Shown here piece after piece: positions 15,466 to 52,478 of a stretch of DNA of 64,000 nt (position 1 is its first letter; each line of letters begins with the position of its first letter). Where the stretch lies: contig NC_134475.1 of the NCBI RefSeq assembly GCF_964194025.1, forward strand, positions 21,886,001-21,950,000. Direction: 5' to 3'. A model generated the notes under the pieces. That model saw only the letters and a program-made list of their open reading frames with translations, had not been told where the DNA came from and ran no database searches. The position numbers and the translations under genes are program-made. The DNA is from Convolutriloba macropyga. Its lineage: Eukaryota.

Positions 15466-16319
15466 CTTGATGAAGCGGCTGTAGTCAACTCTTAATGGTT
15501 CTGTCGTATGTAAAGTAAAGGTAAAAATGGCTCAAAATTTACTGAGCGACTTTTTTTGTAAATTAAAAAAACCTCTTATATTTATGAAGGCTAATCAGCC
15601 TAGCTCTTTTCGTTCAAAAGTAGCGACGCAACTTTTCACAAATCCAGGAATCCTAAAGGTGTATTTTTGGTGCTAAATCTAGCTAAAAATTTGCTTAAAA
15701 AAGGAAAAACTAAGCGTTCGCGCGTGTGTACCGTTGATTTGTTGAACAGGACCAAATAATTGCTTTTAAATTTTTTTTACATATATGACATCGCAACGAT
15801 TCTCCTCTAAGTTTTAGTTCTCCTTTTATCACAATCAAGGTGCCAGAAAAAAATTTTACTGAAGTGTTTTCTTTTTTTTTGTGTGTGGAGTTTTAGGAAC
15901 AAATAAAAAGTAAAACCAAACAAACTAAATCTAAATTGATACTTCTTCAAAAAAAGTTAAATTTTTTTAGAATTTAAAATGCGGTTCGACCAGGTAACTT
16001 GAGCTACAGACAAGCAGAGAAATCTGGTTGCTTAAAAGCTGGGTCTACTTTGAAGCTCTTTTCCAAGAAATTCTGTTTTGCGGTTCTTACCCCATTAACT
16101 AGGCTCGCGGCTAGTAGTATGCAATTAAGATCAAAGAAAACACAAACCTCTTTGTATATTGTTTTTTGTCAGAAGCTTTTTCAGTAATTTTCTGTCTGTT
16201 CTCTTCGGTTTTGCAGAATGGTTATATAGTTTTCCATCTTGTTTTGTAATGAACTGCGGAGTTATATAAAATAGCTCTTTTTTGAAAATTGATTGATTTT
16301 TTCTTTAATAAGAAAAAAA

Positions 16320-18889: not shown

Positions 18890-19302
18890 TGAAATAAAGT
18901 CGCCGAGTTGATGAGAGCTAAGCTCGAAATTGAATTCCTTTAAAATTTGGAACAACCTTATTGAAGTAAATTACCTCAAGAGTTCAAGACCGAGCTTCAA
19001 AACCCGGTGAGATTGTTCTTGATCACCCCCCCCCCTCCAACGTCGTACCGCCGCTAGCCCTTTAAAAAAAGCAGTCGAGTACTGCAACAGAAATAGCCAC
19101 AACGGGGAGGACACTTCAGAGAAAATTTTTGTCCTATAAATTTTTGTCCTAAAAATTCCTCGGCAAGTCATCAAAAAAGCAGTGGTCAACAACAACACGA
19201 TCCAAATTCTAGCTATCGCAAAAAAGAACCTTCGTTTCGGGAAAGCACTTCGTTTTTTTTACGATTTGCAATCCCCCGTATGATATAAATACAGTTTCGA
19301 AT

Positions 19303-22300
19303 ATGGGAAAAAAGAAATACAATCTAAGAAAAACTGTTGTGAACGATAGTGTTCGTCTGCAAATCCAGTCTCAAGATAATGCTAGCTCACGAGACATCAT
19401 TGATGACTCTGACCCCATCAGTGATGCAAATACTGGTTTGACGCAAAACTTTCAAGACTTGAGTGTAAAAGAGCAATTCCACACAACACCAGGAACCATA
19501 CTTTTTATCCCCGACACTGTCAACAAACTCTATAAGGTGCAAGTGTTAGAAAACTCGGGGCATGAAACCAAAATTAGATATAGTGGTTGGGGCTCAGAGC
19601 ACGACACGTGGTTTAATGCGAAATCAGTTTGGGCCTATTCGAAGCACAAACATAACTTGAAGAATCGCAAAAAAATAACAAAAGAAATTTCAGATAAAAT
19701 TGACCTACTCCTCGCGTCGTGTGAGCAGAACCAGCTTGATGATAATTTCTTTGAAAACGTTGAACAAACAATACTGAACGAGAACAAAAAGTTGCCCTCT
19801 TTACAGACAATAGTTAGTTCACATGTTCCAACATGCCGTTTCGTTCCGGTCAAATTTAGAACTAAGTGGTCACAACTGCTAACCAGCATCCTGGATGATT
19901 GTGCCACAACACCAGATGACGAACTAAATTGGCAGAAATTGTTTTCTGTTTCGAAGTGTATCCTGCGTGCGAGCAACCGAGGAGGTAAAAAGCATAAACG
20001 AAATCAGGATCAGCGGCTCTCCGATCGCATCGATCGATGGAATGCGGGTGAATATGCAAACCTTTGGACAGAAGCTTTGGCAATGAAAAAAGCGAGGAAA
20101 AAATCCACAAACGGAATAGAAGAATTAGCCAGTAGAGCTAAAAGTCTATGTTTGCAAGGTCAATTTGGTCGCGCCGCAAAAATACTGTCATCTGAGGGAC
20201 TTGCACCTAATAACAGAGGTACTCTGAAAGCACTAGAAGAGCTACATCCCAAAGAAGTGCCTCCAACTTTGCTCCAACCAGACAATGTTGCTTCAAGTGC
20301 GTATCAATTTAGTGATAACATAGTTTTTGAACAATTGAAAACTTTCAGCAAGTACACTGCAGCTGGTCCTTCCAAGATGTATCCAGAACATCTATTGCAC
20401 GCAGTAGAGTGTACTGCTCCCGACCACTCTGAATCCGCCCTTAAAGCAATAACAAGGTTTGTAAATACAGGAAGCAGGGGTAATTTCCCTTCATTTGTTT
20501 CAAAAGCCCTCTGCAGCGCATCGCTCACCGCTCTATCCAAAAAGAAAGGAGGAGTACGTCCAATAGCTGTCAGTGAAATCCTGAGGCTTCTGATTACTAA
20601 ATGTTTGGTGAAAGAAGCAAAATCAGAAGCAATTGAGTTGTTCGATTCCATTCAGCTAGGGGTTGGAGTCAGCGGAGGTGCGGAAGCAATTATCCACTCT
20701 GCAAAAATCACCTACGAAAAGATCCTCAACGCTGAATCTAATGAAGGAGTGCTTCAGATTGATTTCCGAAATGCCTTTAATTCGGTTAAGCGTTCACACT
20801 TATTGCAAGCAGCATGCGATTTCATACCAGGTATCGCAGCCTTCACATATTTTTGCTACTCTCAGCATGTGCCACTACTGTACAATAACGCCAGTCTTCA
20901 AAGTGAATTGGGTGTTCAGCAAGGAGATCCCTTGGGTCCACTTCTCTTTTCGTTGACGTTATGGCCTGTTATAGAAAAAATAAAAGACGCGGTTCCAAAT
21001 CTTACCCAGCACACTTGGTATTTGGACGGTGGTTTTGTTGCAGGTTCAGAAGATCAAATCCAAACTACGCTCGATATCTTAGCTAATGAAGGTCCAAAAA
21101 GGGGTCTGTACTTGAGGAAAGACAAGTGCGAACTCTGGTCAATCGTAGATCTACCTTCAGTTGATCGAGAAGTTACAAGAAATATGGGCAATGGTTTTGA
21201 AGTACTGGTTGCCGCAGTCGGATCACCAGAATTTGTTTCTTCTTGCCTGCAGAAACGTGTTCAGAAGGTTGTGTCGCTCTTGGATAATTTGAGTTATCTG
21301 GATGATCCTCAATGCGCTCTCGGCATACTTCGTTATTGCCTAGGGACACCAAAGTTAGTCTACTCTATACGCACTAACACGCCGACAAGACATCTGATCG
21401 ATGTTTTAAAAGTTTTTGATTCCAGCCAACGGGATGCGTTAGATCAAATAATAGGTGCTGTCACCTCTGACAATGCGTGGTTGCAGTCAACTTTGCCAAT
21501 AAACAGTTCAGGCCTCGGAGTGCGACAATCGCAACAGCAGTACAGAGCCGCATATGTGGGCTCAGTGATAGCATCTGATGACTTGGTTCAGAAAATTACA
21601 AACCAGCGCGCGTCAGACAGTAGAGTTTTTAAGGAACTCTATGCAAGCCTTGAACCTTTCAACTTAAATTCCTACACACAGAAGAAAATTCAAGAAGCTG
21701 TAGATACTGAAAAGTTTTCAGAGCTGCTAAGAAATCAGTCGTCAAACAGGGAGAAGGCAAGACTGCAATAACTCTCGTTGCCTCATTCCGGCGCATGGCT
21801 TGCGGCACCTCCAGTTCCTGCCTTAGGTCTCCATATGTGTCCCAGTGAATTTCAAATTAGTGTCAAATACAGACTAGGTATTGCAGTTTATGAAGATGAA
21901 AGAAAATGCCCTTACTGCAGGTCTGGGACCCTTGACATTTTTGGTGACCACGCCGTCATCTGTCCCGGAAGAGGGGATGCAATTTCTCGGCATGACAGGA
22001 TTCGTGACCGTTTTGCATCAGCTTGCTCAGCAGCTAATTTGTCCCCAGTCATAGAAAAACGGAACCTTTTTGCAGGAAACGGTTCTCGCCCTGGCGACAT
22101 TTGGTTGCAGTGGAGAAGTTACGGTTCTCACCGTAACTTCTCCACTGCAACCAAACATTATAAATCATGCGGCAGAGAAGTCTGGTTACGCGATTGAAGC
22201 AGCCGAAGAGCGAAAGTATACACAACACGAAAATGATTGCTCTGAGCAAGGAATTTTGTTTGTTCCCCTTGCTGTTGAGTCATTGGGTGGTCTGTCAGTC

Positions 22301-22456
22301 ACTCTCAAGAAAGCGTTAAAGCGCATAGCCCTGTTAGCTGACAGCAGGAATTATCAGTCGCAAGGACATGCTATCGCTTTTGATAGATTGGCTCAGTCGG
22401 TTTCCGTTGTGATTGTACGAGGATCGGCTACAATGTTGCTTGCACGAGTCCCGTAA
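19303..22456 (+). mobile_element. CRE-clade-like non-LTR retrotransposon ORF (chromo-barrel-like domain + RT + CCHC/restriction-like endonuclease), inactivated
   Basis: RT motifs GGVRPIAV, QLGVGVSGGAEAIIH, IDFRNAFNSV, GVQQGDPLGPLLF, WYLDGG (catalytic DD changed to DG). C-terminal CPYC...DHAVIC, RHDRIRD, RPGDI, EERKY, FVPLAVESLGG. Premature TAA at 21769-21771 and a frameshift near 22100. Confidence 0.9.
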
Positions 22457-35392: not shown

Positions 35393-35551
35393 ATTAAAAC
35401 TTGTAGTTCTGTACGGGTTGTTTTTGGCGGAGACTGCAATTGAGAAAATAACAAACAATGCCCACTTTGCGGCACCATATTTTAAAGAACTTTGTCACAT
35501 ACTCCTCTCTCGCCCAACCAAATAATTTCACACATTTTGCTTAGAATTGTG

Positions 35552-35651
35552 AGTAGTAAGTAAATACTGTCTCAAGAGAGGGGGGGGGGGGTTATCCTAC
35601 GATACTTAAACATGGGATAATAGGGGGTTATCCTAGACGGAAAGAGATTAA
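35552..35651 (+). repeat. Left terminal inverted repeat of the Polinton
   Basis: agtagtaagtaaatactgtctcaagagag(G)nttatcctacgatacttaaacatgggataatagggggttatcctagacggaaagagattaa. Confidence 0.95.
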
Positions 35652-35726
35652 GGGGATTAGGCGGCCTTGAAACTCATTTTTCCGCCATGACAACCCTAGC
35701 GACGGTTGATTTGAAAGCTATTCACA

Positions 35727-36104
35727 ATGGAAATTTACAAGGAATCGAAAAAAGATTATTTTCAATACGGTGAAAGGTTTCTTTATTTCTTGGCAACATG
35801 TCAGTACTTGGATCCTGATCTTGATTTGGATATTGCGATGAAAATGAGACCCTATGGTGGACTGATTGGTATTGATAATTCGTCTCTGTACAAGTATTTC
35901 AAGTCTTACAAAATTTTGAGTTTGCATGCTACACTTCACGACGCTTCAGGTTTTGTCTTTGAATATAGTGAAAAAGGGCCGGGCTATTCGTATGTCCTAC
36001 TGTGTCCAGTGACAAACGAGTATCTTGGTCACGTGACAGGACTTGCCTTCTGTCTATATGTAAAGACTTTTAAAAGCAATTTATTCAGTTTGCTGGAATG
36101 TTGA
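35727..36104 (+). CDS. Polinton accessory protein with an HxxxHD motif (possibly PLA2-like)
   Basis: Intact 125-aa ORF, the first gene after the TIR; LHATLHDASG, GPGYSY, LGHVTG. The function is inferred only. Confidence 0.5.
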   Translation: MEIYKESKKDYFQYGERFLYFLATCQYLDPDLDLDIAMKMRPYGGLIGIDNSSLYKYFKSYKILSLHATLHDASGFVFEYSEKGPGYSYVLLCPVTNEYLGHVTGLAFCLYVKTFKSNLFSLLEC

Positions 36105-36589
36105 AATCAAGACCAGTTGTTCTTGATTTTGAAGGCTTTCGACATAAAAAGTCTGGTTTTATTATCAAAGAACTAGCTGTTTGGACAGAAAATTATTGCG
36201 ATACTTTGTCTTTTTTACCCCCAACTTCATTCAACAAACTGTCTTCGAGTGAGAGACGATCATACAGTTGGGTGTCAAAATATCTCCATGGTTTGAATTG
36301 GGAGAGTGGAGATTATCCACATTGTTATTTGCAACAAATTTTTGATAGCATAGCACTCCGATTTCCCTTGGCAACTTTTTATGCAAAGGGAACAGAAAAA
36401 ACAGAAATTATTCAGAAACTTCTCAAAAAGGACGTTATCAATTTAGAGACTTTATTATGTCCAAAAATTGAAAATTTGAAATTTTTTCACGAGACACCAA
36501 TTTGTACTTTACATGTTTTAAGCTGTCCTAAGCGGCAAAGAAATCAACAATGTGCAAGAAAAAAAGCTACCTTTTTTACTTGTGGCTAA
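36098..36589 (+). CDS. DEDD/DnaQ-like 3'-5' exonuclease-fold accessory protein (3' end probably frameshifted)
   Basis: VVLDFEGF...FIIKELA (ExoI DxE), HGLNWESGD, YAKGTEK, INLE and C-terminal CxxH...CA; a pattern seen in Polinton accessory nucleases. Confidence 0.75.
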   Translation: MLKSRPVVLDFEGFRHKKSGFIIKELAVWTENYCDTLSFLPPTSFNKLSSSERRSYSWVSKYLHGLNWESGDYPHCYLQQIFDSIALRFPLATFYAKGTEKTEIIQKLLKKDVINLETLLCPKIENLKFFHETPICTLHVLSCPKRQRNQQCARKKATFFTCG

Positions 36590-36592
36590 CGA

Positions 36593-36922
36593 ATGAATCG
36601 ACGGTCCGAGAAAGCAGCATCGTCTCTACTTCAATTGAACTTGTCCCCAAATTTAGTGGTTTAGAGTTGTATAGCGGATGGAAATCATTTAACAGCTACA
36701 TTTGTCAAAGAGGAAAAAGTTGACAGTCGTGGTCAAACTGTACTGAGGAAACAGCAAATTGTCTGTACTGGAGCTGAAATAGAAGCCTTCAAGAAATACT
36801 TTTCACTTTTGGAGTACTTTCAATTGTACCATGTCTTTGGAAGAGAAAATGCGAAAGCTGAAACTAACCCCTTTACCTATGCCCAAGCGTGCAGAACCAG
36901 TTCTGATGTCACTGAACGATAA
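36593..36922 (+). pseudogene. Hypothetical ~109-aa Polinton protein with one internal stop (absent from the ORF track)
   Basis: MNRRSEKAASSLLQLNLSPNLVV*SCIADGNHLTATFVKEEKVDSRGQTVLRKQQIVCTGAEIEAFKKYF...TER*. It fills the gap between neighbouring genes. Confidence 0.5.
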
Positions 36923-37085
36923 GAGCCTTCCAGCTGAAATAAGACGAAGAATTGAAAAGAACAACGTACAGTCAATTGTTTTCAGAGAAAAAACTGACAG
37001 AGTAAATGCGAACTACACCATTACTTTTATCAATGATAATCAAAACTCACAATTTGTATCTTATGAAATTTATATAATGAAATAA
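36831..37085 (+). CDS. Hypothetical Polinton protein, 84 aa
   Basis: ATG-initiated ORF in good context (accATG) within the tightly packed co-directional gene block. Confidence 0.5.
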   Translation: MSLEEKMRKLKLTPLPMPKRAEPVLMSLNDKSLPAEIRRRIEKNNVQSIVFREKTDRVNANYTITFINDNQNSQFVSYEIYIMK

Positions 37086-37122
37086 CCAAATTTACCTCTT
37101 TTTTCAGAAAACTTATTTTAAA

Positions 37123-37398
37123 ATGAGTAAAGCAGAGGATCAGTTAGAAACAGGCGGGGCAATAACTGACTTAGTGTTTGATGATAATCACCATGAAAGA
37201 CGATCATGGAGGTTTTGTAATTCAAGGATACCACGATCAGAAGTTGTTTATTTTACACAAGTTTTTATTATAATTTTTCTCATAATAGTTTATTTGGTAA
37301 AACTTGTGTTTTTCCAGCTTGAATGTGAAGAGTCTACATTTTGGTTTTCTCTTCTTTCTTGTACAGTTGGATACGCTCTTCCCAACTCAAAATTATGA
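37123..37398 (+). CDS. Small two-TM membrane protein typical of Polintons/adintoviruses
   Basis: RSEVVYFTQVFIIIFLIIVYLVKL and FWFSLLSCTVGYALPN hydrophobic segments; lies directly upstream of the ATPase. Confidence 0.75.
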   Translation: MSKAEDQLETGGAITDLVFDDNHHERRSWRFCNSRIPRSEVVYFTQVFIIIFLIIVYLVKLVFFQLECEESTFWFSLLSCTVGYALPNSKL

Positions 37399-38126
37399 AT
37401 AAAATCATTTCAACAACTGACCGGTTGTTTATGGCCGTTTGCGGTCCGTCATGTTGTGGAAAAACAGAGCTCATTTTCAGAATGTTACTCGACAACACTT
37501 TTTCTCCAAAGTTCCTCTCGATTTTTTATTTCTACCAACATGAACAACCCAAATTTAAGTCACTAGAGGCAAAATTAAACATACAGTTTACCAAATTTTC
37601 AAGCTTCGATTTGATATCGGAGCTCGAAAACTGTCTGTTGGTGTTTGACGGTTCATGTGAAGAGATTTTTAATGACAAAGAGTTTTCGAAATTGGCTACA
37701 GCAGGACGTCACAAAAACATTAGTGTAATTTACGTAAAACACAATTTATTTCAACAAAGTAAATGGTCACGAACTATTGATCTTAATACAACACACATCA
37801 TTTTATTTAAATCACAACGTGACATTCAACAGATTGGTTTAATTAGTCGACAGCTTAATAACACGCAATTTTTGAAAGATAGCTACGAGCTAGCAACCAA
37901 ACAACCCTTTGGTCATTTACTGATCGATCTGGATCCAAAAACATCGGACGTTTTGCGTTACTGCTCCAATATTGTTCCACCAGGACCATCCGTTTTTTAC
38001 CCTCCCCCAGCTAAAGCTGTTATAACCAATTTGAGTAATGAGAGAGAAAGAGCTTTGTATGCTGCGGCGAATGTTAGAGACATCGGACATAAAGTCAAAA
38101 GAACTAATCAAGTCGGTACCAAATAG
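37395..38126 (+). CDS. A32/FtsK-like DNA packaging ATPase
   Basis: Walker A GPSCCGKT, Walker B LLVFDG (DD changed to DG), AGRHKNISVIYVKHNLF, RTIDLNTTHIILFK, PFGHLLIDL. The ATG at 37395 overlaps the upstream stop (ATGA). Confidence 0.93.
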   Translation: MNKIISTTDRLFMAVCGPSCCGKTELIFRMLLDNTFSPKFLSIFYFYQHEQPKFKSLEAKLNIQFTKFSSFDLISELENCLLVFDGSCEEIFNDKEFSKLATAGRHKNISVIYVKHNLFQQSKWSRTIDLNTTHIILFKSQRDIQQIGLISRQLNNTQFLKDSYELATKQPFGHLLIDLDPKTSDVLRYCSNIVPPGPSVFYPPPAKAVITNLSNERERALYAAANVRDIGHKVKRTNQVGTK

Positions 38127-38322
38127 TTTTATTAACTTTCTTTGCGAGTGTTTGCTTAATGTTGTCAACGGTAACGTTCCCGTCAAGAAAACATTAATAC
38201 AAGGTCATGAAAATTCATTTAAAAAACTTTTATCTAAACAAACAAGTTTAAAAAAAGGCAGATTTTTGCTAAAAACACGGTTCTTTTGAAAGGTATTGCT
38301 CTCTCGTGTTACCTTCATCTGA
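38038..38322 (+). pseudogene. Conserved small basic Polinton protein (FLCECLLNVVNGNVP), frameshifted near the 3' end
   Basis: CECxLNxxxGNVP motif followed by a basic helix, recurrent in Polintons downstream of the ATPase. Confidence 0.65.
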
Positions 38323-38332
38323 GGAAGTGATA

Positions 38333-39138
38333 ATGTATACTGAAGAATTTATCTTAATTCCCAAAAGAATGTTCATGTCAACACAACCGGCAAAAAGTGA
38401 AATTTTTGACAATCCTGTCTACAAACAGAAAGCGACCCAATTGTCTCTCATTCAAAGAAACATAATACAAAATCCGGAAAAAAGTGAAAAAGAGGATGGA
38501 GCAGTCCAGACAGAACCCAGCATAAATGTTGAAACAGATCATGAGGAAAAAGAGGAGCCGATGAGAGATGACAGTAAATTGAACCTATTGTCAAAAAAAG
38601 TACAACTACAACGTTTCAGTCATTAATGAGAGATTTGGGAGTGATGGAGAAAAATAAAATCGGAAGAGCAGAAATCATTCTCAACAAGATATTACAATCC
38701 CCGACAATATCCATTGAAGATTCAGGTGGTATCATTCATATTGATAACCAACCACTTGGCTTAAAAGCGTCAACTTTTTTGTATAACACACAGCAGTCAA
38801 CAAAGAAAATTGACATTCAAAAATATTCTCGAGCATTATTAGCTCTCGATCTTCCACCTCATTTAGTTTCGAATACCTATGCCAACCAGATCTTGGAACC
38901 ATCCGAAAGCGAAGAAGAAATTTTTGCAAGACCACGAGGACAATCAGGAAGCGGTTATCAAGTTACCAACCAAAGAAAAACGGGCACAAGAAAAAAGACG
39001 GCAGAAGGAGAGACCAAACAGCAAAAATGGTCTTACTTCTTCCGAGAAAAAAACGTTGGACCAACTGTATTTGAAGGGACCTGCATCGTTTGGAAACCCA
39101 AAGCGATTAAAAACCCAAAGCAAATTATCATTTGGTAA
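38333..39138 (+). pseudogene. Polinton hypothetical protein upstream of the integrase (split into two ORFs)
   Basis: MYTEEFILIPK... (38333-38626) and ...RAEIILNKILQSPTISI...IHIDNQP... (38626-39138); probably one frameshifted gene. Confidence 0.55.
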
Positions 39139-39921
39139 AGTTAAGACATACTTGGAAACCAAGTCATCTTTTACAAAATATCGCCCAATTCGTTTACGAT
39201 TTCCCAGACTTAAAGTAATAGTAAAAGACATAAATGAAATTTGGTCCGTTGACTTGGCTTATGTGGATAAACTAGCAAAATACAACAGAAATGTTAAACA
39301 TTTATTGGTTGCGGTCGACTGTCTTTCCAGATACCTTCGTGTGGAGCCCTTAAAAACAAAGTATGCAACGGAAACTGCCTCGGCCTTGAAAAAAATGATA
39401 AAAAACAAGCAACCACAAAAGTGTGGGTTGATTATGGTACAGAGTTTCTTGGAGTCTTCAAAACCTTATGCAACAAACGAAAAATTCATTTATACAGCAC
39501 TTTTAGTGAAAAAAAGTCTGCATTCGCAGACAAGTACCTTGAAGAAAAGTGGACATACTGCTACATTGATAAACTGGATCAATTTGTGAAAACAATTAAC
39601 TCACGGGTCAACCGCGTAACCAAACTTGCTCCAAATAGGGTCACTAAAAAGGATGTTCCACGACTTGTCTCTTTGAGCGCTCAACTAATCAAGTTTCAGA
39701 GACCCAAATTTTACGTTGGAGATTTTGTTAGAATTGTCAAAGAGGACGAAGCCTTCAGGAAAGGGTATAAACAATCTTTCACCGACGAAGTATTTGAAGT
39801 AGAAAGCTTAGCAGCCTTTATTCCACCAACGTATTCACTTATTGATGCAAACGGTGACAAAATTGAAGGCAAATTTTATCAACCAGAGTTACAACTTGTT
39901 CGTATTGAGAAAAATGAGTGA
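39020..39921 (+). pseudogene. Retroviral-type (RVE) integrase, frameshifted, catalytic Glu segment apparently deleted
   Basis: LYLKGPASFG, EIWSVDLA, LLVAVDCLSRY, (W)VDYGTEF, EKKSAFA[missing ER...]KYLE, INSRVNRVTKLAP, FYVGDFVRI, FRKGY, GKFYQPELQ. Start approximate. No C-terminal chromodomain. Confidence 0.92.
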
Positions 39922-40801
39922 AAACCGTTTCACCGATGAATTCACTGTGCAAGTTATTTCATCTGCTTCAATGGAAATTTTTGACTCTAACACTCTTAGT
40001 TCATTTCAAAATTATTTCAATGATGAAATTCAACTCGCTGGTGACTGGAGAGTAGCTCTCAGTTAGATCATTTTCCCCACAAAAAATGAGCTTATTGTAA
40101 ATGGAGACATGGTAGTATATAGCTTAAAAGGGTACGAAGACATCCAGAAAAGGGCTACAGAAGCCAATGTGATCTCTCGTCCTTATAACGTTGAAAAATT
40201 GTCTATCATGACAGGAACTTATAACTCAGTTGTTGACATACTAACTACTATCAAACGAACTGTTGGACTACCAAACTTTGCATTCAGAGAGATCAAGAAA
40301 ACTGGAAAGTTTGAAATATTGATGGGGAAAAATGAAGGAATTACTTTTCCCAGTAAAGAAATTCCGAGCATTATCGGTTTTTCGGGCATTCCAGATGGCA
40401 GTGGAGTACACATAGGGTACAAAATGAAAAGCGCAACATCAAACAGACTAATGAAGAGTGATGAAACGGCAGCATACTATGGAGATTTTCCCGTTGATCT
40501 TTGCTCAGGAAAGCACTTAATTTTTATATATACGAATACTATTGTATACCAGTACGTCGGTGATACAAAAGACCCCTTGCTTCGAGTCATTGATTCAAAA
40601 CAACGTTTGAAAAACGGTAGTGTCTGGGAGCTTGAACCAACTCATCGAATTGTTTTTTCCAATTTAGATTACAAAAAACTCTTATCAAACACCATACAAT
40701 CAATATCGATTGAGCTTCGCACAGAAACGGGAGAATTGGTTCCCTTTTCGGGAACCGGTAAAGTCATTTTAACCCTTCAGTTCAAAAAATTTTCCAATTA
40801 G
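39914..40801 (+). pseudogene. Minor capsid protein (penton, single jelly-roll) with one internal TAG
   Basis: FTVQVISSASMEIFDSNTLSSFQN...WRVALS*IIFP continuing in frame to IFIYTNTI..QYVGDTKDPLLRVI...ISIELRTETGELVPF...LTLQFKK. Confidence 0.88.
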
Positions 40802-40802
40802 C

Positions 40803-41230
40803 ATGGACTCTTATTACGCTAACCAAGCAACATCCTTACCACATTTCTCTGGCTACTACAGGCAAAAAGGCAGTGGTTTTGGTGCATTAGCTGCGGGAAT
40901 TGAGCGGGTCGCTTTACCCTTAGCTCGACGTTTCATTCTTCCTACTGCAAAACGTATTGGAAAAGAACTTTTAAAGCAAAGTGTTCCAGAGCTGCTAGAC
41001 GTTGTCAGCAGTAAAAAATTACCCAAACAAGCACTCAAAAATACAATAAGCAACACTGTTAAAAAACAAACAGGGGAGCAAGATTTCGGCAACAAAGAAA
41101 AACGATTAGGAGTCGCTCAAAAAAATCACCAAGAAAAACATTAACCAAACAAAAGATGGTCATTTCAAAACAAAAAGTTCCAAAAAGAAGTCGGTCTGAT
41201 TTCTTTTCTCAAGTTAAATATGACCGCTAA
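40803..41230 (+). pseudogene. Basic core (pVII-like) protein with adenain-type cleavage sites, frameshifted
   Basis: RQKGSGFG and KQTG(G) glycine motifs. An Arg/Lys-rich tail (RSRSKKSPRK...KRSRSDFFSQV) continues in the shifted frame. Confidence 0.75.
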
Positions 41231-42498
41231 CCTCTTACCAAACGAAGCAACCCATAGCTCTTTGGATCTGTTTGAGAAGCCGGCGCTCTTGGTGACTTTC
41301 GATGGAAGTGTTTGTCAAAAATTGGGACCTGTTTATAGTCCTGATGGACCCATGTTAGAGTTCGAGGTAACTGGTGACCGTAACAACTTTATTGATTTAC
41401 AAAAAATTTGTTTAGAAGTCAAATGCAAAATTGTTCAGTCTTAGGGAGCTGATCTCAAATATGACGGGGCAGCTACTGCTGACACTGCTAAAACCGATGC
41501 TCCATACTTTTGCAATAATGTGCTACATTCCCTTTTCTCTGACTGCACAGTGTCAGCCAACGGGTTGAAAATCTCTAACGCAAATGGAAATTACGCACAC
41601 AAGAGTTTTATAGAAACTGAGTTCTCACGTAACAAAGACGCAAAGAAACTTGGTTGGCATGTCAAGGCTATTCTTACGAAGAAGATCCATCTGCAATAAA
41701 AGCAGGTGAAATTGCTCGAAGAAAAAACTCAGTCAGAGAGTTAGCAGAATGCACTTTTAAACATCTGCTCAGTGGTGTAACTCTTCGTATTGCATTCAGA
41801 AGATCTATTGTTGATTTTGTTATCATTTCGGATGATGCTGCAAAACATTACAAGGTGAAAATTGTTGAAGCTAATTTGTACGTTCGCAAGATGACATTGA
41901 ATGACGAGGTCGTGTCTGCCATTGAAAAAACCTTGCTTACTAGCCTTGCTGCCTATCCCTACTTTGAAACTTTGACAAAGACGTTTTTGGCTTCAACTGG
42001 TCTGCATAGTTGGAAGCAGGAGGACATTTTTGCACGAGAGCCAATCCGAAGACTAGCAATCTGTCTCAATACGAATGAAGCTTTTTTGGGCAACAATATG
42101 CAAAATCCTTTTCATTTTCAAAAATTTGACTCGGAACAGATATATATTTATCGCAACGCAATGGGTTACCAGTGGCTGATAGCCCAATATCTACAAATGA
42201 TAACAAACGCCTTTATTTTAATACAATATCCGATTTAGCCTATATTGATAATGGGCATGGAGTAAGTCTGTCAGACTATCCCAACCATTTTATAATGGTA
42301 TTTGATCTGACTAGCGCCCAACAAGCTTCTCATGATTTTACACACCCGGGGCTAACAAACTGTTCCATATCTATCGAATTGAAGTTTTCAGCAGCGTTAC
42401 AGACCAACATTGAAATTTTTATTATTGGAGAAAAAGCTAGTACAATTTTTGTTGATACTGCGCGACGAGTGTCAAAAAAACATATTCTAACAAACTGA
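41220..42498 (+). pseudogene. Major capsid protein (double jelly-roll, hexon-like), with stop, frameshifts and a deletion
   Basis: SSLDLFEKP, PMLEFEVTG..NFIDL, NNVLHSLFS, YAHKSFIET, LLSGVTLRI, ANLYVRK, NPFHFQKF, VFDLT, ISIELKF. Confidence 0.92.
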
Positions 42499-42926
42499 TG
42501 ATGGACGAAGATGATATTAATGGTTTAATTCAGAGATGTCAAAAACTAAAGCACAAATTTCGAGATGTATTTGCAGCAGACAATTTTCCTTCAAAATTGA
42601 AATCGAACACTTTTTTAATAGTAAACGCGTCAAAATCTCAAAGTCCTGGCATGCACTGGCTCCTCATATGTAAAAAGAACGACCATCTTCTGTTTGCTGA
42701 TCCCCTTGGACGATCCTTGCCTTCTTACAAGAATATCTATCAACGACTTGCAAAAAACAATGTACAGTTTCAACAATTACTTGAAAACCAACCAATTCAA
42801 GGTCAAAACTCAGAATTGTGTGGACTCTTTTGTATTTTTATTGCTCATTTAATATTTGATGATAGACAAATTGTAAATTGTAGTGATTTTCAATTGATTC
42901 GCTTTGCTCTTCACATGATGCTCTAA
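42498..42926 (+). CDS. Adenain-like cysteine maturation protease
   Basis: GMHW (His), FADPLG (Asp), IQGQNSELCGLFC (Gln/Cys). ORF intact; AATAAA at ~42944. Confidence 0.93.
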   Translation: MMDEDDINGLIQRCQKLKHKFRDVFAADNFPSKLKSNTFLIVNASKSQSPGMHWLLICKKNDHLLFADPLGRSLPSYKNIYQRLAKNNVQFQQLLENQPIQGQNSELCGLFCIFIAHLIFDDRQIVNCSDFQLIRFALHMML

Positions 42927-42977
42927 CAAAACTAATATTGTGAAATAAATTTTTTTTAAAAACTGAATTTTTTCTTC

Positions 42978-43673
42978 TTATACAAGACGAAAAAATAGTA
43001 AATCAGAATCAATGTTTAGTTTTCCAAAACCGCTCATAAACATATCCATAATCTGACAAAAAGCACTAGAGTGAGGACCACTCAAAATTGATTCCACTCT
43101 TTTTAAAGTTTCACTACTAATTTGATAAGTTTGAGTTTTCGAATAAATTGTAGAACACACAAAATTGTGAATTGTTTTCTGTGGTACAATTGATGTAGAT
43201 CTCGCCAATGTTTTTGAGATTCCGCTAGTGACCGCTGTAGATTTTGATAGTTTGGTTGCCGCTGTTGTCAAGGGTGGAAGTCGCTTGCGTACATTTGCTG
43301 TATCCATTTTCTCTCCAGATTTGTTATTAAAGTCGACGGCAAGCTGTAATTTTGAAAATGTATCTCCTTTAAATTCCAGACTCGTTGAGGTTGAAAATAA
43401 GCGTCTGAAGGTAGTGAAGAGACAGGGAACTGCAAAAATTTTGATTGGCTTCATGGTCTCAACATCGATTGCACTCTCAATCAGAACGTGAAAATGGTTA
43501 GTTGGTAACTGACAAAATTCAGACTCAAAATGAGGACACACAGCATAGTTATTCGAAGCTGTTAAGTTTGGCTTTTCATCAGCAATTAAAAACTTGAACT
43601 GCTTTTGAAATTGTTTGAAATAGTTGGGAGAGCGCTCAAACATTGCTTCCACCATCTCTACTACACTGATCAA
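42978..43673 (-). CDS. Hypothetical Polinton protein (231 aa), convergent with adenain
   Basis: Long open ORF containing CPH..., NHFHVLI and NVRKRLPP; no firm family assignment. Confidence 0.6.
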   Translation of the reverse strand: MISVVEMVEAMFERSPNYFKQFQKQFKFLIADEKPNLTASNNYAVCPHFESEFCQLPTNHFHVLIESAIDVETMKPIKIFAVPCLFTTFRRLFSTSTSLEFKGDTFSKLQLAVDFNNKSGEKMDTANVRKRLPPLTTAATKLSKSTAVTSGISKTLARSTSIVPQKTIHNFVCSTIYSKTQTYQISSETLKRVESILSGPHSSAFCQIMDMFMSGFGKLNIDSDLLFFRLV

Positions 43674-43953
43674 ATTTCTGCTTCTTTGCTGAGGGTGGTT
43701 TTGAATCTTGCGTTGCAGCAGCTTTACGTATTTATTCTGCTTTTTTGACTAAATTTCCAAACTCTTCTAGAGTTAGAGAAATTCTCTGTTCAAACTCGTA
43801 ATCATCGGCCGCTTTCTTGAACAACTTTAGAAACACATATGTTCCGGTTCTTTCGTAAGTTTTTAAAGTTGCCCTGACCAAACGCTTTTCAGTTTGGGAA
43901 ATGTCGAAATAGCAATCTCCAAACTGTGTGTCTTTTGAGGAAGTAAAAGGCAT
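43636..43953 (-). pseudogene. PC4/whirly-like ssDNA-binding protein with one premature stop
   Basis: RLVRATLKTYERTGTYVFLKLFKK...RISLTLEEFGNL resembles the PC4 fold motif. Reading through the TAA at 43732-43734 gives IRKAAATQDSKPPSAKKQKF...* with an NLS-like motif. Confidence 0.6.
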
Positions 43954-44141
43954 GGTAGGCAACTTGTTTTATCACTTGCTCTTAATGTAAATAACTACGA
44001 AGTTAGGAGGCGCGGCAAGTTGGGATTAAACCAGTGTCGTCATATTTTTAATTAAATCCAAGTGATTGGTAAATACAATCTCAAGTACGCCCCACAACGT
44101 ACTTGAGACTGTTCATTTTAGACTTTTATACGTATGTGACC

Positions 44142-44998
44142 TTAGATAAAAGTTAATTAAAACCATACCTTTATAAACCACCAGAACCTACTTGCGAACA
44201 GAGATAACAAGTACATGTGTTTTGTATATAAAGCAATAAATTTATCAACACATCCCCACACTTCTGTGTTGGAGAGAGTTAAACATTAATAGTGTAGGGA
44301 CCCATGTATTTTACAGATTTAGAACAGATGTGACCCTATATAGTATAGTGTAGAGACCACACAAAATTTACATAAAACCAAAACAAAACAGATGTGACCC
44401 CAAATTCCTCTGTAAAGGAACCACCGTGCGGCTAACCACATGCTATAAACAAAGAGCTGTGTTATGCAAGTAGGCGTGACGGAAAGGTATGCTGCAATCT
44501 TTTGTTTGGTCTTACATAAGGCGACCCTTGTGAAACACATGTTGGGAAAGAATTTTGTACTTGTGTTCATTTTTAGATAATAGTTAATAAAGACCATACC
44601 TCTATAAACCACCAGAACCTACTTGCGAACAAAGATAACCAGTACATGTGTTTTGTATATAAAGCAATAAATTTATCAGCACAACCCACACTTCTGTGTG
44701 GGAGAAAGTTAACCATTAATAGTGTAGGGACCCATGTATTTTACATACAAGTTGATTTAGAACAGATGTGACCCTAGATAGTATCGTGCAGAGACCACAC
44801 ACAATTTACATAAAACCAATACAAAACAGATGTGACCCCAAATTACTCTGTAAAGGAACCACAGTGTGGCTAACCACAAGTTATATACAATATATCATGC
44901 AACTAGGTGTGATTATGCTCCAATCATTTGTTTGGTCTTAGATAAGGCGAACCTTGCGAAACACATGTTGGGAAAAAATTTTGTACTTGTGTTCATTT
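44142..44998. repeat. Two diverged tandem copies of a ~430-bp non-coding unit inside the Polinton
   Basis: tataaaccaccagaacctacttgcgaac at ~44172 and ~44603. Both copies end in aattttgtacttgtgttcattt, and each contains aacagatgtgaccc twice. Confidence 0.9.
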
Positions 44999-45055
44999 CT
45001 TTCTTTTGCTCTTACTTAACAGTTAACTATTGAATCGAACTTGAACTTCAAAACA

Positions 45056-45770
45056 ATGTCCGTGAAAATTCTTTCGGAGTCTGCTATCTCTTTTGAGAGA
45101 ACTCTTGTTTACCAAACCGTGTTTGAAAATTTTGTCGTTCTGATACAACAGAAAAGAAAAAAACGATTTGTGGTACATTTACCAGCATTGTTTGATACCG
45201 AAGCTATTTATTAACGCTATTGCTGCCCTACCGGAAAATTCGGAGCCGGCTGAATCCAGTATCATTACTTCTGGAGGACACTTACCACCAAAAACTATAC
45301 CACAAATGCATTCGACTGAAGAAACTTTGCCGGAGGAAGTGAGACGTCTCTTGTACAGATACGACTGCGATTGTGTGCCCTTATTCGAGAATCAACTCGG
45401 TACATATCAAGCCTACGAAAATTTGGGTGATATGTGGGGTGTCAAATCATCACCATCCTCACCGGACAGTCAGCCACCGAGTGTTTCAGTCAGTGTTCCA
45501 ACAACTCCTGCTGTGGATCCAAGCCCAACTTTTACTCCAACCCCAAGTCCGTCACTCTTTGAGGATTTCCAGAGGAAGAACAAGATCTCTGACAATTTTG
45601 CAAGTCAGTTTGATGTCAACATTTTATCTGGTTCAAACTTTCATACACTACAACCCCGAACAAATTCAGCCGATTTCAAAACACCCAATTGCTCGGAAAC
45701 TCCAGTAGTGTGCGCAGCACCGAAAAAACGAAGACAAGAAGACTCTCTAATGGACTTTTTTGACCTCTAA
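45056..45770 (+). pseudogene. S/P/T-rich Polinton accessory protein with C-terminal NLS and PIP-box-like motif (frameshift in the A-run near 45155)
   Basis: MSVKILSESAISFERTLVY... from ATG 45056 joins the 45168-45770 frame, which ends PKKRRQEDSLMDFFDL*. AATAAA at ~45912. Confidence 0.6.
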
Positions 45771-47872
45771 CGACTTATTTAATATTGAATTGCTTTTCCT
45801 TTGCACTTTGGTGTGTTGTGTTACTGGCTTTTCTGAATAGCTCTCTAATTGACACTCGTCTTTTAATCTTTTTTACATAGCTAGCAGACTTTAGAATCAG
45901 AATTTTACAAAAATAAACATGTTCAAACACGTTCACAAAAATAGTATCGTTTAGTTAGACAAAGTTGGGGGAAAATTTCCAAAATGGACATGTTCAAACG
46001 TGTTCGAATATATAGCAGGAAGCAAACAAGCTTCTGATTGGTTGAGAGAAAATTTGTTGAGAAAGCTATTGAAATGTAAAAATAGGTTTGAACAAAAGCT
46101 TCAAAAAATGCATAAAGTCCTTATCAAACAAAAACTTCATTTAGCAAATCGTTCTTCGTATGCTGATATAATATCAGCGCTCCTGTTGGGTATACCTTCA
46201 GGTGTTAGTTAAACTAGTAAAACATCATTTTTTCAGCAAAAAAGGAGGAAAAAAAGCGATTTTTCCGGTTTTTTTGCTTTATAAATTTTTTTTGACGGAA
46301 CGAAAACTCAAAACCTGAAGGCCATCACCAACTGTTTTTTGTGGGCTACCGATATGAATAAAAAAATTGACCACATTTCTTATAAAAAAGTTGAAAAAAA
46401 ACGAAAAATTTTTTTTTGTTTTTCATGGTGACTTTTGACCCCAGAAAAGTCGGCTCCAACAGATAGTTGGGATGAAACTGACTATTGGGTTGACACTATC
46501 AGACACTGTACTACAAAAAAGCTCATAACGCTCGTCAAAATAAACTCAATCCTTCATCAGATAATTAACCATTAATTAACAGCTAATTAGCAGCTAATTA
46601 GTCTAATTAGTGATTAACAAAAAAAATTCCCATTATTTTAAACGGATTTGTAATCATTGGTACATGCTTGTCACTTTTGGTCATAAGGGTCAGGGTCGAA
46701 AAACGGCTCCTTCACCGATTTTCAAAACATCTGGACATTAACGTCTCATTAACATCTGGCATTAATTAGCAATTGAAGTACCCGAAATAATAATGATACA
46801 CCAGGTTTTTTCCAAAAAACCGATTTTTTGGGGGCTGGAGACAAAATCATCTCATAACAGCTGTCATCGAAAAATGCTTGCAACAGGGGGCTTGTCATTG
46901 GCTGTCATGTGATGACATTGATTGATCATGATTGACAGAAAATCTAACTTTTTTCCTGATAAAGATGAGGGATTTTTTCTTGTCGGGTCCTACATTTTAG
47001 TGCCCGGGGAGCATTTTTGGTTATGATGACCAACATCGTCCGACGCACCCATCGGCATCTACAGTAAAAAAAACTACAAAAATCGCTTTTTTTTGCAACA
47101 TTAAGCGAAAAAAACTGAACATTTCATTTGCTTTTAGTAGATTTTTTAGCTGTTCAAACACCGTGACAGTAATAAAACTGTGCATGATAACCGTCCAAAG
47201 CATCCCTTGTACTTAAAATTTAACAAAGTGTACAAAAAAGCGATGTTTTTGCAATATTATTCAAAAATTCTATAGAAATCAAATCAAAACTTTCTTTTTA
47301 TGTAGGCTACTAGTGTGTAATATTACATCTAACGGGTTCAAACACAAATGTTTCCTCTACCCTTATGTCATTGGAGCATATTATCTATGAAAATTAAGAA
47401 AAAAGATTAAAATATTTGATTGAAAGATCATTAAAAATTCATAAAAGTTTACTTTGACTAAACCTAAAAGTTAGCAAATCAAAAAAATTGCAATTGATAA
47501 GCATTGTTACCTCACATATAACTAATAACTAAAAGGAACTACCCCTGGTTTTAAAAAAACCTTTTTATATACTGTACTATTAATTCGAAAATAACAAACA
47601 AGTTTTGTCATGTCAGTGTTGTTCAGTGAGAAATGTAAAGTCAAGCACTGTTTTACGTTCAACGCAACTTGATATGTTCATAGTAGTTGACTAAAGCGGG
47701 GACGCGCTCCTATTATCCAATCAAATTCGAAAATTTTGAAAGTTTTTGAATTACGCGCGTCTTATATGAACCTCGTGTGGAATAGAAATAAATTCGCCAT
47801 TTGAAGTTGAGTTACATGTTTACGAAAGTTGTCATTATCTCTGTTAACTTTTGAATCTTGAATTTTTCGACT

Positions 47873-50800
47873 ATGGTTTTCAATTGCAAATATTGTTCGG
47901 CAACTTTTGCAAACAGAGGAAATCAATCTCGCCATGAGCATCGCTACCATCCCGACGAAGTAGGTTTACCAGTCTTTACCTGTTGTATTTGTACATTCAC
48001 TTGTAGAAAACTTTCTGAACTGGAACAACACATGAGGACTTGTCATCAAAAATTTACAAATTGTTGTCGGTTCTGCTATATGGGTTTTAACAACACCAGA
48101 TTATTTGCTCAGCATATGAGTTCTTTGCATTCTTTACCTGTCTTTGGCGATCAATTCCAACCAACTCAAGCGCCGGCCGAAACTGCCTTTAATGGTACCC
48201 TTCAGAGCTACCATCTGCCGCCATCACCAACCCAAGCCAACACAATCCTTGCTCAGTTCATGTTCCAGCATAAACCACAAATCAATTCGCTTATAGAACA
48301 AAAACTCTCACAAGGATCACAAAAAGTTCAATTTAGTGCTCATCTTCAACTCCGAAAGCCAAGTCAAAACGAAGATCAGGAAGATGAGCTTATTGAAATT
48401 TATGCAAATTCGCTCATGACACCGGTGTATAGTCAGGGAATTAGCAGTGAGACCTTCTGGACTATGGTCGAGAAGATGATGATAGTGCTAACGACATTTG
48501 CCTCTAATGGTAGTGGTTAGGTGCTTGAGAAAGTTATCAAAATAATTGTGAACTTTGCCCGTTACCGACCTATAACCGGCTCGTCTTACATTGCAATACC
48601 ATCAAAATTACAAAATTGCCGCAGTTTACTTAATATTCGTAACCATGAGGACGCAAATTGCTTCCTTTACTGCTATGTTGCTGCATATCATATGCACAAC
48701 AATATTAGCTTAGATCGACCAGGAAGGAACTACAACACAGACAAAACTTCACCCGAAACTTACAAGCAAGCCAACCTTCATCAACCAACTGGACACTTCG
48801 ATATGCCCATGGGGCTAGAAGACATCAATCAGTTCGAAAATCTAAATGAAGTTCGAATCAACGTTTTTGGTTATGATGGTAGAGACTTATTTCCACTCAG
48901 AGTCTCAAACTTCACAATGGACCTATTGCTTTTATACGAAGCAGACTGTTACCATTATGTGTTGATTACCAACTTGGTTAAGGTAGTCTGTCAACTCCGA
49001 AATACCAAATTTTGCTTTACGTTTCATATTTGCCGGAAATGTTTCTGGTTGTGTGAAGAAGGCCTTGCAAAGCTTACCGCACATATGGAAACCTACTGTG
49101 AAAATGCGCCGGCTGTTTTCGATTACCAGCTCCGGGAAAAATATTTATATAAATTGAAAAACTTAGCCGCTACCTGGTTTGTTCCATTAGTCATTTACTT
49201 TGACTTCGAATCCTTCTTGTGTCCAGTAGCAGGATGCACGCTCCACGGGAACAACTCATACACCAGAGTTATTGAAAAACACGAGCCCTGTGGGTTTTCA
49301 CTTGCGGTAATTGATCACTACTCAACAAAACCCATCTTCTTCCACGTGGACAGCTCTGAAGACTGCATTACTAAATTTGTAAACATGTTACACACACTAG
49401 CCAAGGATATATACAAGCGCAATTGAGCTTTTCCTTTCTTCAGAGGTGACCGTAGCCAGTATCCGAAAAGTGCAGCTAGCGAATGTTGGATATGCAACGA
49501 AGCCTTTGACGATAATGATGAACAATCATCAATTGATCTGGATCACTGCCACTACAGCGGACAATTTCTTGGCTGGGCTCATGAAAAATGCAATCGAGCA
49601 CGAAGGAACGTCAACTTTACCCCTGTGGTGGGTCATAAAATACAAAATTATGATCTTCATCACATTTGTTTAGCCCTCCAATCTTGTGAGCCAACGACCA
49701 CTGTAAGTGTAATTCCATCTAGTGATGAAAAATACATTTCCATGAATTTTGGAGTACTCGTGAAGACCATAACCCTAGATGATGGAAAAGTGATCAAAAA
49801 GTACGAAAATCTGAGGTTCATTGATTCATTCAAGATGATAAATTCGTCTCTCGAAAAGTTGGTTGACATTTTACCAAGAGATCGTTTTGGAATGCTTGCT
49901 TCTGTCTTTCCTAACCTATCCTCAACAGAATTGAAGCTCCTGCAGCAAAAAGGATATTACCTCTATTCATATGTTAGCGGTCGAGAAAAGTTCAGCGAAA
50001 AATCCTTACCGCCTCTTAATGAATGACGTAACACTTTAGAAAAAAACGCAGTAACAATAACTCAAGAAAACTTGAACCACGCCAAGACGATGTGGAACAC
50101 TCTGAATTGCCAAACTCTACAAGACTACCACGATGCATACCTGAAAACCGATTGCGCTCTTCTCGCATGCGTTTGTGAATTCCACAGAGAGCTCAGTTTC
50201 TCCACCTACAAACTCGATTGCATGCACTTTTACACACTGCCAAATATGGCTAAGGAAGCATCCTTGAGAATATGCAAGGCGGAGGTCGAATTGCTTACAG
50301 AACGCGAGCACCTCGATATGATAGAAGGAGCAGTACGTGCGGGAGTATGCTCAGTCTACGAGATGAGAAAGTTTAGAGCAAATAACAAATATTTACCAGA
50401 TTACGACTCTTCATAACCCTCGACATTTGGCTTCTGCGTGGACGCCAATAACCTATACGGTGGCGTCATGCAAAATGAAAAACCCCTCAGTCAGATTTTA
50501 CGCTGAACTCTGATATTACACTGGCTGAGATACTAAACTGTCCTGATAATAACCCTGTCGGTTACTTCGTGGAAGTCGACTTGCATTATCCAGCAAGTCT
50601 ACACGATTACCATCAGGACTTCCCCCTCGCACCATCGAAAAATATTGTTGAGGATGACTGGCTCAGTGACTACCAAGTGAATTTGCGAGAGAGTCATAAC
50701 TTACCCCCCTCAAAAGTTCCAAAACTGTTGCAGACTTTCTTCGACAAAGAACATTATGTGCTGCATTACAAGCTGTTGAAACTGTATGTTAACTTGGGAT

Positions 50801-52137
50801 TAGTAGTGAGGAAAATGCATCGTTATATACGTTAACACCCTATATAACCCTGAACAGTGAGAAGAGACAAGCGGCTTCGAATAAATTTGAGGAGAGTTTC
50901 TATAAACTAATGAACAACGCCGTTTATGGGAAAAACTGCGAATCGAAACGTCGACGGATGAAAATCGAGCTTACTAGAGACGCAAGACGAACCCTAAATT
51001 TAGTAAGCAAGTTTGAGTTTGATACATTCAAAGTGTTTGGCGAGAACATGGCAGCTCTCTCCTCCCGCCCAAAAAAGATCTATTGGGATACACCAACTAT
51101 TGTATTGGCCACAATACTTGATCTATCGAAATACTACATGTATCAGTTTCACTATGGAACAATGCGATCTTCATTTGAATGTCGATTACTTTATAGTGAT
51201 ACTGATAGCTTGCTATACCGGATCAATTGTGAAGATCTCTACCGTGAACTGAAGGAGAGCAATGTTCTTGATCAATTCGACTTCTCAAATTACCCAGAAG
51301 ATCACGAACTGTACAGCGAAGAAAATAAGCGCGTCGTCTTAAAATTCAAAGATGAATTTGCTGGGGATTATATAAAAGAGTTTATATGCCTGAAGCCAAA
51401 GCTGTACAGCATTACTTCCACTAGTGAGTATTTTACGTTTAATGATTCAAGAAAAAACTAACAAAGTACCAACTAACCTTGTATGATTGTCATAATTTGA
51501 CTGCTTTTTGCTGTTCACAGGTAACCGAAAAAAGACCGCCAAAGGAATAACAAGAGCAGCCCAAAATTTGCTTCGACATGCTGACTACAATAATACACTT
51601 GTGACTGGTAGTACACTGCGCGCTGAAAACACAAGGATTGTTTCGGAAAAGCATGTTCTACAAACGGTTTCAACGAATAAAATATGTCTCTCTGCTTTTG
51701 ATAATAAACGCCACATTTTGAACGAGGGAATTAAAACACTACCATTCGGCCACTATAAAATTGATCATTGCCGAGTCGAAGATTTTTCTTGGGATAGCGA
51801 TGAAGTAGAGTGGGACTACGAAAATGTAGAAAATTATGCTCACCTTCTCCTAGATTCGAGTCCAAACTGGGAGCATAATAATAGTTTTGTTGTACCGGAT
51901 ACAACAATAATTGAAAGCCCGGAAGAATGGGAAACACCTGACCCGGGATTTGCAATGACAAGTATTATTAACGAGGACGATATTGATAGCGATGATATCG
52001 TAGATTTCGATGCTACCACCAGCTCCAGCTCTTCCTCCCCTAACCCATTCATTAATTATGAAGCTAATGAGTGCAGTGAAAGTAGTACTAGCGATTATGA
52101 AGAAGAACCAGCATTTAAAGTTGCACGCAGACAATAA
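47873..52137 (+). pseudogene. Protein-primed family B DNA polymerase (pPolB) with three N-terminal C2H2 zinc fingers, an Endonuclease VII-like insert, one intron and an acidic tail; multiple stops and frameshifts
   Basis: CKYC..HEHRYH, CCIC..HMRTCH, CRFC..HMSSLH; GSSYI, INVFGY, VIYFDFES (ExoI), CWIC..DHCHYSG..AHEKCN, H(K)IQNYDLH, RFIDSF, YLKTD, DANNLYG, KLMNNAVYGK, YSDTDS, KFKDE, LKPKLYS, TAKGI. Confidence 0.96.
51424..51520 (+). other. Predicted 97-nt phase-1 spliceosomal intron in pPolB
   Basis: GTGAGT donor, two ACTAAC branch-like motifs, pyrimidine tract and TTCACAG acceptor. Removal restores LKPKLYSITSTSNRKKTAKGI in frame. Confidence 0.88.
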
Positions 52138-52336
52138 ACTTATTGTACTTAACTCCGTAAATTGCGCCTTTTGAATTCCTAACCGGGTAAATTTTGTGTT
52201 TATGAGTGCTAAAATACGTTTCAATAAATTGTTCACTTGCAGCTCTTATCGGAACGAAATTTAGAACAAAGTTGGCTGTTTGACCGAAAACAAGTTTGCC
52301 GCTTTGGAAATAGTCACATCTGGTAAAGAATGAAAG

Positions 52337-52431
52337 TTAATCCCTTTCCGTCTAGGATAACCCCCTATTATCCCATGTTTAAGTATCGTAGGATAACCCC
52401 CCCTCTCTTGAGACAGTATTTACTTACTACT
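52337..52431 (-). repeat. Right terminal inverted repeat of the Polinton
   Basis: Reverse complement matches the left TIR except for poly-G length and one substitution. Confidence 0.95.
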
Positions 52432-52478
52432 ATTGTGTTTTTGGGACCACTACTTAGGTTATGCTTTGAATACCTTAC

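Follow-up and report, generated by a model that had tools for sequence, protein, structure and literature searches.

The polymerase gene of a Polinton in the acoel Convolutriloba macropyga raises the question of whether a 97-nt segment, which separates the reading frame upstream from that carrying the C-terminal part, is one more lesion of a decayed element or a spliceosomal intron needed to make the replicase. The segment lies in the window, which is the whole 64,000-nucleotide stretch analysed here, and it had been read as an intron in the original prediction. Judged from sequence comparison across copies, families and database relatives, it is very probably a functional intron and a feature of a whole Polinton clade.

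The host element is a 16.9-kb Polinton at 35552-52431, which is delimited in the window sequence by inverted repeats and a 6-bp target duplication and contains a gene for protein-primed family B polymerase (pPolB). Its features are as follows.

35546..35551, no strand: left target-site duplication of 6 bp, a hexamer identical to 52432-52437
35552..35651, plus strand: left terminal inverted repeat with AGTAGT start, the inverted pairs 99-100% complementary
37329..38126, plus strand: packaging-ATPase-like ORF, with a Walker-A-like motif visible in translation
38867..39921, plus strand: integrase-like gene, frameshifted in this copy into two overlapping ORFs, a single ORF in a sister copy
41633..42498, plus strand: probable major capsid gene in pieces, ORFs here and one 461-codon ORF in sister copies
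42456..42926, plus strand: adenain-type cysteine protease (PF00770, E 3.7e-06, exceeding the curated cut-off)
47873..51423, plus strand: pPolB exon 1, from an N-terminal zinc-finger-like region through the KxY motif (ORF list)
51521..52137, plus strand: pPolB exon 2, with the AKG motif, a predicted thumb region and an acidic disordered tail (from pN/pS and a relative's model)
52337..52431, minus strand: right terminal inverted repeat, pairing in inverted orientation with the left one
52432..52437, no strand: right target-site duplication of 6 bp, a hexamer identical to 35546-35551

The ORF at 37329..38126 is taken by us to encode a packaging ATPase and the gene at 38867..39921 presumably a retrovirus-type integrase, the motifs of both being judged by eye, while the capsid label of 41633..42498 is probable and comes from size and gene order. 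Elsewhere in the window, we observed a decayed LTR retrotransposon at 8683-15531 (minus strand), which we take from its motifs to be Bel/Pao-like, and a presumed non-LTR reverse-transcriptase ORF of 852 codons at 19213-22456 (plus strand). A Pfam search gave no match for the capsid ORF fragments, which come from this decayed copy, and none to PF03175 for the window's own pPolB fragments; PF03175 is present on database proteins 94-95% identical to the window's pPolB. Exon 1 has four in-frame stops and two frame changes, showing that the gene is decayed upstream of the intron, and it forms an uninterrupted 1212-codon frame in 6 of 150 protein-search matches. As well, a weak Endonuclease VII-like (HNH-type) match was found within the polymerase at 49427-50026 (PF02945, E 3e-4, below the cut-off), which resembles the pPolB2-type proteins in the accessible text of 10.1101/2023.08.22.554363.

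The segment itself was compared among five Polinton families of the genome containing the window (labelled G000), where family A is the window's own and families B-E are more diverged. Its features are listed below.

51424..51520, plus strand: putative intron of 97 nt, phase 1, GT-AG, with splicing predicted from the sequence and from copy and family comparison
51424..51429, plus strand: 5' splice site GTGAGT; GTRAGT in families A, B, C and E, a GC donor in D
51459..51461, plus strand: TAA closing the upstream frame upon intron retention (sequence, ORF list)
51497..51501, plus strand: candidate branch site TTGAC, its A 20 nt from the acceptor; alternatives CTAAC at 51458 and 51473
51502..51520, plus strand: pyrimidine tract and 3' splice site (sequence); YAG in all five families

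The sequence bears out the predicted 97-nt segment: GTGAGT begins at 51424, a tract rich in T follows and AG occupies 51519-51520. With the base frequencies of this element GTRAGT and YAG would occur together at two fixed positions by chance with a probability of about 7e-6. Removal of the segment leaves 17 residues from the KxY motif to the AKG motif, compared with 17-18 in uninterrupted near relatives, which agrees with the earlier claim that the conserved motif spacing is restored. The AKG motif is carried by the downstream frame, and the upstream frame ends at the TAA of 51459-51461, so that retention stops before the KG motif, as had been proposed. The motif spelling given there beside AKG turned out to be private to this copy, since the other 29 loci fetched differ at two bases.

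The branch site is less clear-cut. The two ACTAAC motifs that had been pointed out are present in the window (51457 and 51472, where the branch A would be separated from the acceptor by 59 and 44 nt), but they are absent from families B-E, and as a feature private to family A they were rejected as conserved branch points. According to its position, TTGAC at 51497-51501 may be an equally good candidate, at a more usual distance from the acceptor. Comparison of families A-E gave no branch site common to them, family A having three candidates and none of these being shared. Rfam returned 0 matches for the segment at E up to 1, and a group I or II self-splicing intron was rejected because of this and of the 97-nt length. 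Terminal repeats or duplications were looked for at the ends of the segment and none were found.

The frame change had been described as unlike the decay frameshifts of the element, and sister copies agree: all 30 of the closest family-A loci fetched keep the segment (96-97 intron bases aligned; GT in 29/30 and AG in 29/30), so it is no private lesion. The acceptor is TAG in 28 of these 30 copies and the window's CAG is a minority form; hence, of the CACAG noted originally, the AG stands as acceptor but CAG is not its typical form. In the DNA search, 40 of 232 candidates were scored, every one 97-100% identical. The segment was located in 33 of 40 family-A loci, 29 of which have both ends at fixed offsets, and two further loci are one base off, probably owing to indels in exon 2. 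An exact probe of the exon end plus donor had at least 54 matches in the genome, where all copy counts are lower bounds, and one for the intron-less junction had 0 matches there. The 1212-codon frame terminates at the intronic stop in the two sister copies examined; in the more intact one the other core ORFs are continuous and the polymerase segment is the only interruption seen, while the second has breaks in further genes. An old family-A copy (L066) carries a 30-nt deletion within the intron, which leaves 67 nt and removes one ACTAAC, with TGAC and both ends kept.

Families B-E, which were drawn from 20 more diverged loci and two further family searches of the same genome, carry an insert in phase 1 whose site, shared by all of them, is five codons ahead of the S-A-K-G motif. 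The insert is 152-155 nt in family B (GT in 7/7, AG at the fixed offset in 6/7), 160 nt in family C (three located of four), 151-155 nt in family D (10 located of 12) and 116-126 nt in family E (both ends canonical in 6/8), and the acceptor is YAG in all five families. Family D (L093-L104) has GC-AG ends with the donor after AAG, reading GCAAGT in 8/10 and GCTAGT in 2/10 of the located copies, which represents a GT-to-GC change in a mobile element; the donors of families A, B, C and E lack an exonic AG and are slightly off consensus. The intron interiors of different families resemble each other no more than shuffled sequence does (|z| at most 1.2), with the exception of B and C (z 11). Over the first 80 codons of exon 2, by comparison, families share 42-79% amino-acid identity with pN of 0.15-0.42 and pS of 0.75-0.97 (subfamily D2 rows dropped from the selection figures), and the downstream exon is thus under strong purifying selection with pS saturated. 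The alignment of sister copies that had been suggested as a check therefore came out as anticipated, since across families A-E the ends remain canonical while the interiors drift. A sixth family in the genome (L081-L092) has no extra DNA at the site in the 11 copies located of 12; this intronless family, with many copies 93-100% identical, lives beside at least five intron-bearing families. The query families P0019 and P0028 had no match in this genome at E 1e-30 and probably come from other genomes.

Relatives beyond the genome point to the same position. Of 51 database homologues, 29 stop immediately after the KxY motif, in most cases with [S/G]-[K/N/E] residues, which is what a read-through GT[AG]A donor encodes; of the others, 16 run through, one runs into unrelated sequence, one has an in-frame insert and four lack the reach or the motif. 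The RefSeq proteins of two acoels, Convolutriloba macropyga and Symsagittifera roscoffensis, belong to these homologue clusters, and C. macropyga proteins match exons of the genome at 100%, which makes an acoel host likely. In 150 cluster representatives from a library of 1.8 billion, 40 of which lack the motif, 11 of 14 with at least 48% identity stop after the motif, whereas among the 96 more distant ones 79 continue through it, the other 17 being motif variants or truncations by eye. A metagenome scan gave 26 loci, nine of them from the near clade. GT and AG are present at the site in six of the nine, around segments of 56, 59, 63, 63, 63 and 68 nt, and the remaining three comprise one with the AG lost, one without donor and one without motif. 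The metagenome relatives have ordinary AAG|GT donors, two metagenome loci at 46% identity are intronless, and the segment ranges from 56 to 160 nt across all carriers. Viral contigs yielded two distant loci with 28-29% identity, from which the motif is absent.

Two side observations concern these clusters. The N-terminal part of P0056 has a second in-frame low-complexity insert of ~25 residues after a conserved VNVFG stretch, which, from its sequence, may be another intron of that family. In clusters P0013, P0017 and P0032, full-length members lie on ~4.5-6.3-kb contigs and those reaching the motif end at the donor; the contigs would be retained-intron transcripts if they are RNA, and DNA fragments otherwise.

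A tree built on the 400 residues preceding the site groups 19 intron-bearing and four intronless rows in one clade with 100/100 support, outside which 10 distant intronless rows fall. The intron state of 15 of the 19 rows was taken from protein ends or gene models rather than from DNA. The free tree needs three changes, and the AU test does not reject a single intron-bearing clade (p-AU 0.205); a quick 45-row tree needs five changes with weak inner support. P0014, P0079 and P0300 were left out of the first tree and P0386 out of the second by the motif filter, and L129 is a long decayed row. One gain near the root of one Polinton clade is thus likely, and precise later losses in some lineages are possible.

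The part that splicing would add was assessed on the predicted structure of P0066, an intronless relative; the model was built from a 26-row alignment and has a mean pLDDT of 69.9, with values mostly of 80-95 across residues 1-390. The intron site falls at about residue 307, in a turn between beta-strands 300-305 and 308-313, and past it the model has helices and strands to ~400, followed by a disordered tail. The C-terminal part of phi29 polymerase is the thumb. Residues 1-364 of the model match phi29 polymerase 275-575 (PDB 2pyj) with Z 13.3 and rmsd 4.1 over 273 aligned residues, the next row of the structural comparison being at 6.1, and the match extends to the phi29 C-terminus. Foldseek with the same model gave nothing at E 0.001 (phi29 at E 0.017), and a PDB sequence search with the intronless relative gave no useful match. 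Going by the model, a retained intron would likely cost the protein its last strand, its KG motif and its thumb.

The exon junction is already modelled by the automatic annotation of NCBI, in which XP_075239384.1 and XP_075250929.1 of Convolutriloba macropyga and XP_063728533.1 of Symsagittifera roscoffensis join the exons at the site. These RefSeq models are predictions, in which the gene finder accepts the splice sites; because XP_075239384.1 and XP_063728533.1 skip other conserved stretches too, the pipeline can place introns over lesions. In four DNA-looking runs the intron is covered throughout, and 15 of their 18 joints include none at 51423/51521, which has no bearing on expression.

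A host gene for an Mx-like (dynamin-family) GTPase, LOC142349030, is followed on its own strand by a family-B element (L115 1432-2034 and L116 7912-9802, contig C11 of G000, ~40.78-40.80 Mb). Its isoform X4 ends in the gene's own terminal exon, which lies ~1.4 kb beyond a phase-1 donor, while X1-X3 run ~17 kb across the Polinton into polymerase exon 2, joined at the acceptor, and their end is 100% identical to family-B exon 2 over 201 residues. Alternative isoforms of NCBI usually rest on transcript alignments, and as an indirect sign of splicing these predicted isoforms weigh more than the polymerase models. The predicted X1-X3 are a possible case of exon capture or gene disruption.

Taken together, the segment is very likely an old and ordinary U2-type spliceosomal intron, which would have been gained once in the clade and would be removed by the host spliceosome. 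Transcripts of the element would be made in the nucleus by host Pol II and freed of the intron by the host's major spliceosome, which would join the KG motif and thumb to the catalytic core. Polintons replicate as DNA, and the intron may persist because such an element is copied without a purging RNA step. The splice ends would be kept because an unspliced message would give a polymerase without its thumb; copies losing a splice end would be dead ends, so that selection would hold the ends while the interior drifts, and the turnover of the interiors between families speaks for the age of the site. The original prediction that the replicase needs host splicing thus appears sound for the family, where site and phase, ends, selection and RefSeq models point the same way, but it does not apply to this decayed copy.

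Whether such an intron also acts as a regulated switch is a separate matter, as both could be true at once. In that case a silencer, or piRNA-linked chromatin of the kind acting on P-element IVS3, would keep the intron from being spliced in most cells, and the protein lacking its thumb would be inactive or would repress replication. We consider such regulation rather unlikely, although several observations would fit it: like IVS3 in the accessible text of PMC7776569, the intron directly precedes a C-terminal part that is essential; it is the sole break among the core ORFs in the more intact sister copy; it has persisted beyond synonymous saturation; and the donors in this genome deviate slightly from consensus, those of A, B, C and E by the missing exonic AG and those of D by GC. 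However, metagenome relatives have ordinary donors, the intronless family has many near-identical copies in the same genome as well, and the read-through tails are unrelated and range from 1 to ~90 residues, with the insert of one family being in frame. The 4.5-6.3-kb contigs of three clusters, whose ORF ends at the donor, would count for a switch if they are RNA, but contigs of 5 kb could equally be DNA that spans from repetitive sequence upstream of the gene as far as the element's right end. The broader proposal that the clade kept the intron across hosts as an on/off gate of the replicase, and that the acceptor captures host Mx-like transcripts, is doubtful to a similar degree, and so is its corollary that retention gives thumb-less polymerase in most cells whereas splicing licenses replication in stem or germ cells.

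Explanations without an intron fare much worse. Exon 2 might be a separate small gene with its own start, complementing the upstream ORF without splicing; indeed, a methionine stands four codons into exon 2 in family A, and gene callers blind to introns report the exon as an ORF of its own. Families B, C and E, however, have Leu at this position and family D has Gln, and Met also occurs there in intronless proteins; moreover, the families keep GT/GC and AG at a fixed phase around unrelated interiors, and according to the model the break would divide a beta-hairpin, which makes a split highly improbable. A recent insertion, decay, an introner arriving after integration or an assembly artefact deserves still less credence, hardly any at all. 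The window's copy is decayed elsewhere, and introners are known to enter integrated Polinton-like elements in dinoflagellates (accessible text of 10.1101/2025.03.18.643946), but the ends of the segment lack the terminal repeats or duplications of an introner and there is no Rfam match. A recent event is ruled out by the sharing of the segment among the 30 closest copies, five families, RefSeq proteins of a second acoel species and independent metagenome contigs.

If obligatory, the ordinary intron would make polymerase expression dependent on nuclear Pol II transcription and on the host spliceosome; this bears on where and when Polintons replicate and would argue against giant-virus cytoplasmic transcription for the clade. 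ORF-based screens would score the clade as broken, though many copies are 97-98% identical, and the ratio of spliced to retained junction reads would report which cells make complete replicase. The site is, moreover, a clear example of an intron that has persisted in a DNA-replicated element, with a donor changed from GT to GC and a possible loss, and to judge from the Mx-like isoforms a host gene may have captured an exon.

Polinton core genes had been called usually intronless in the original prediction, and previous studies describe them in this way: no introns were seen in intact vertebrate Polintons in the accessible text of PMC8097293, a survey in which only intronless elements were counted intact, and the accessible text of 10.1101/2022.07.12.499685 calls core genes intronless and cargo genes intron-containing. 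Word searches of the accessible text of 10.1101/2023.08.22.554363, PMC8502044, PMC11131425, PMC11071296 and PMC5718144 returned no spliced Polinton core gene, and in the openly accessible literature we came across no description of an animal Polinton polymerase with a conserved spliceosomal intron.

Compared with known systems, the Mavericks of vertebrates and nematodes share with this element the inverted repeats, the 6-bp target duplication, pPolB, the protease and other core genes, but their core genes are described without introns in the accessible literature, whereas here the polymerase gene is interrupted in five families. Group I introns of cryptophyte and other Polinton-like viruses (accessible text of PMC12220804) likewise lie within element genes, but these are self-splicing, 309-376 nt long and located in a small ORF near the capsid gene, in contrast to the 56-160 nt and spliceosomal ends seen here. 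The maverick-polinton-like introners of dinoflagellates (10.1101/2025.03.18.643946, accessible text) are also spliceosomal-type introns in integrated elements; unlike the single fixed, old site inherited with the element here, they are high-copy, mostly young, transposon-derived and mostly inserted after integration. Similar to phi29-type protein-primed family B polymerases, the intronless relative has the same polymerase-domain fold in its predicted structure, while phi29 polymerase is a phage enzyme from an unspliced gene and the Polinton protein has, in addition, N-terminal domains and an acidic tail. Finally, IVS3 of the Drosophila P element is likewise an intron in the key enzyme of a DNA transposon whose retention truncates the product; regulated retention and a repressor are proven there according to the accessible text of PMC7776569, whereas the present case is a candidate intron in the replicase of a virus-like element.
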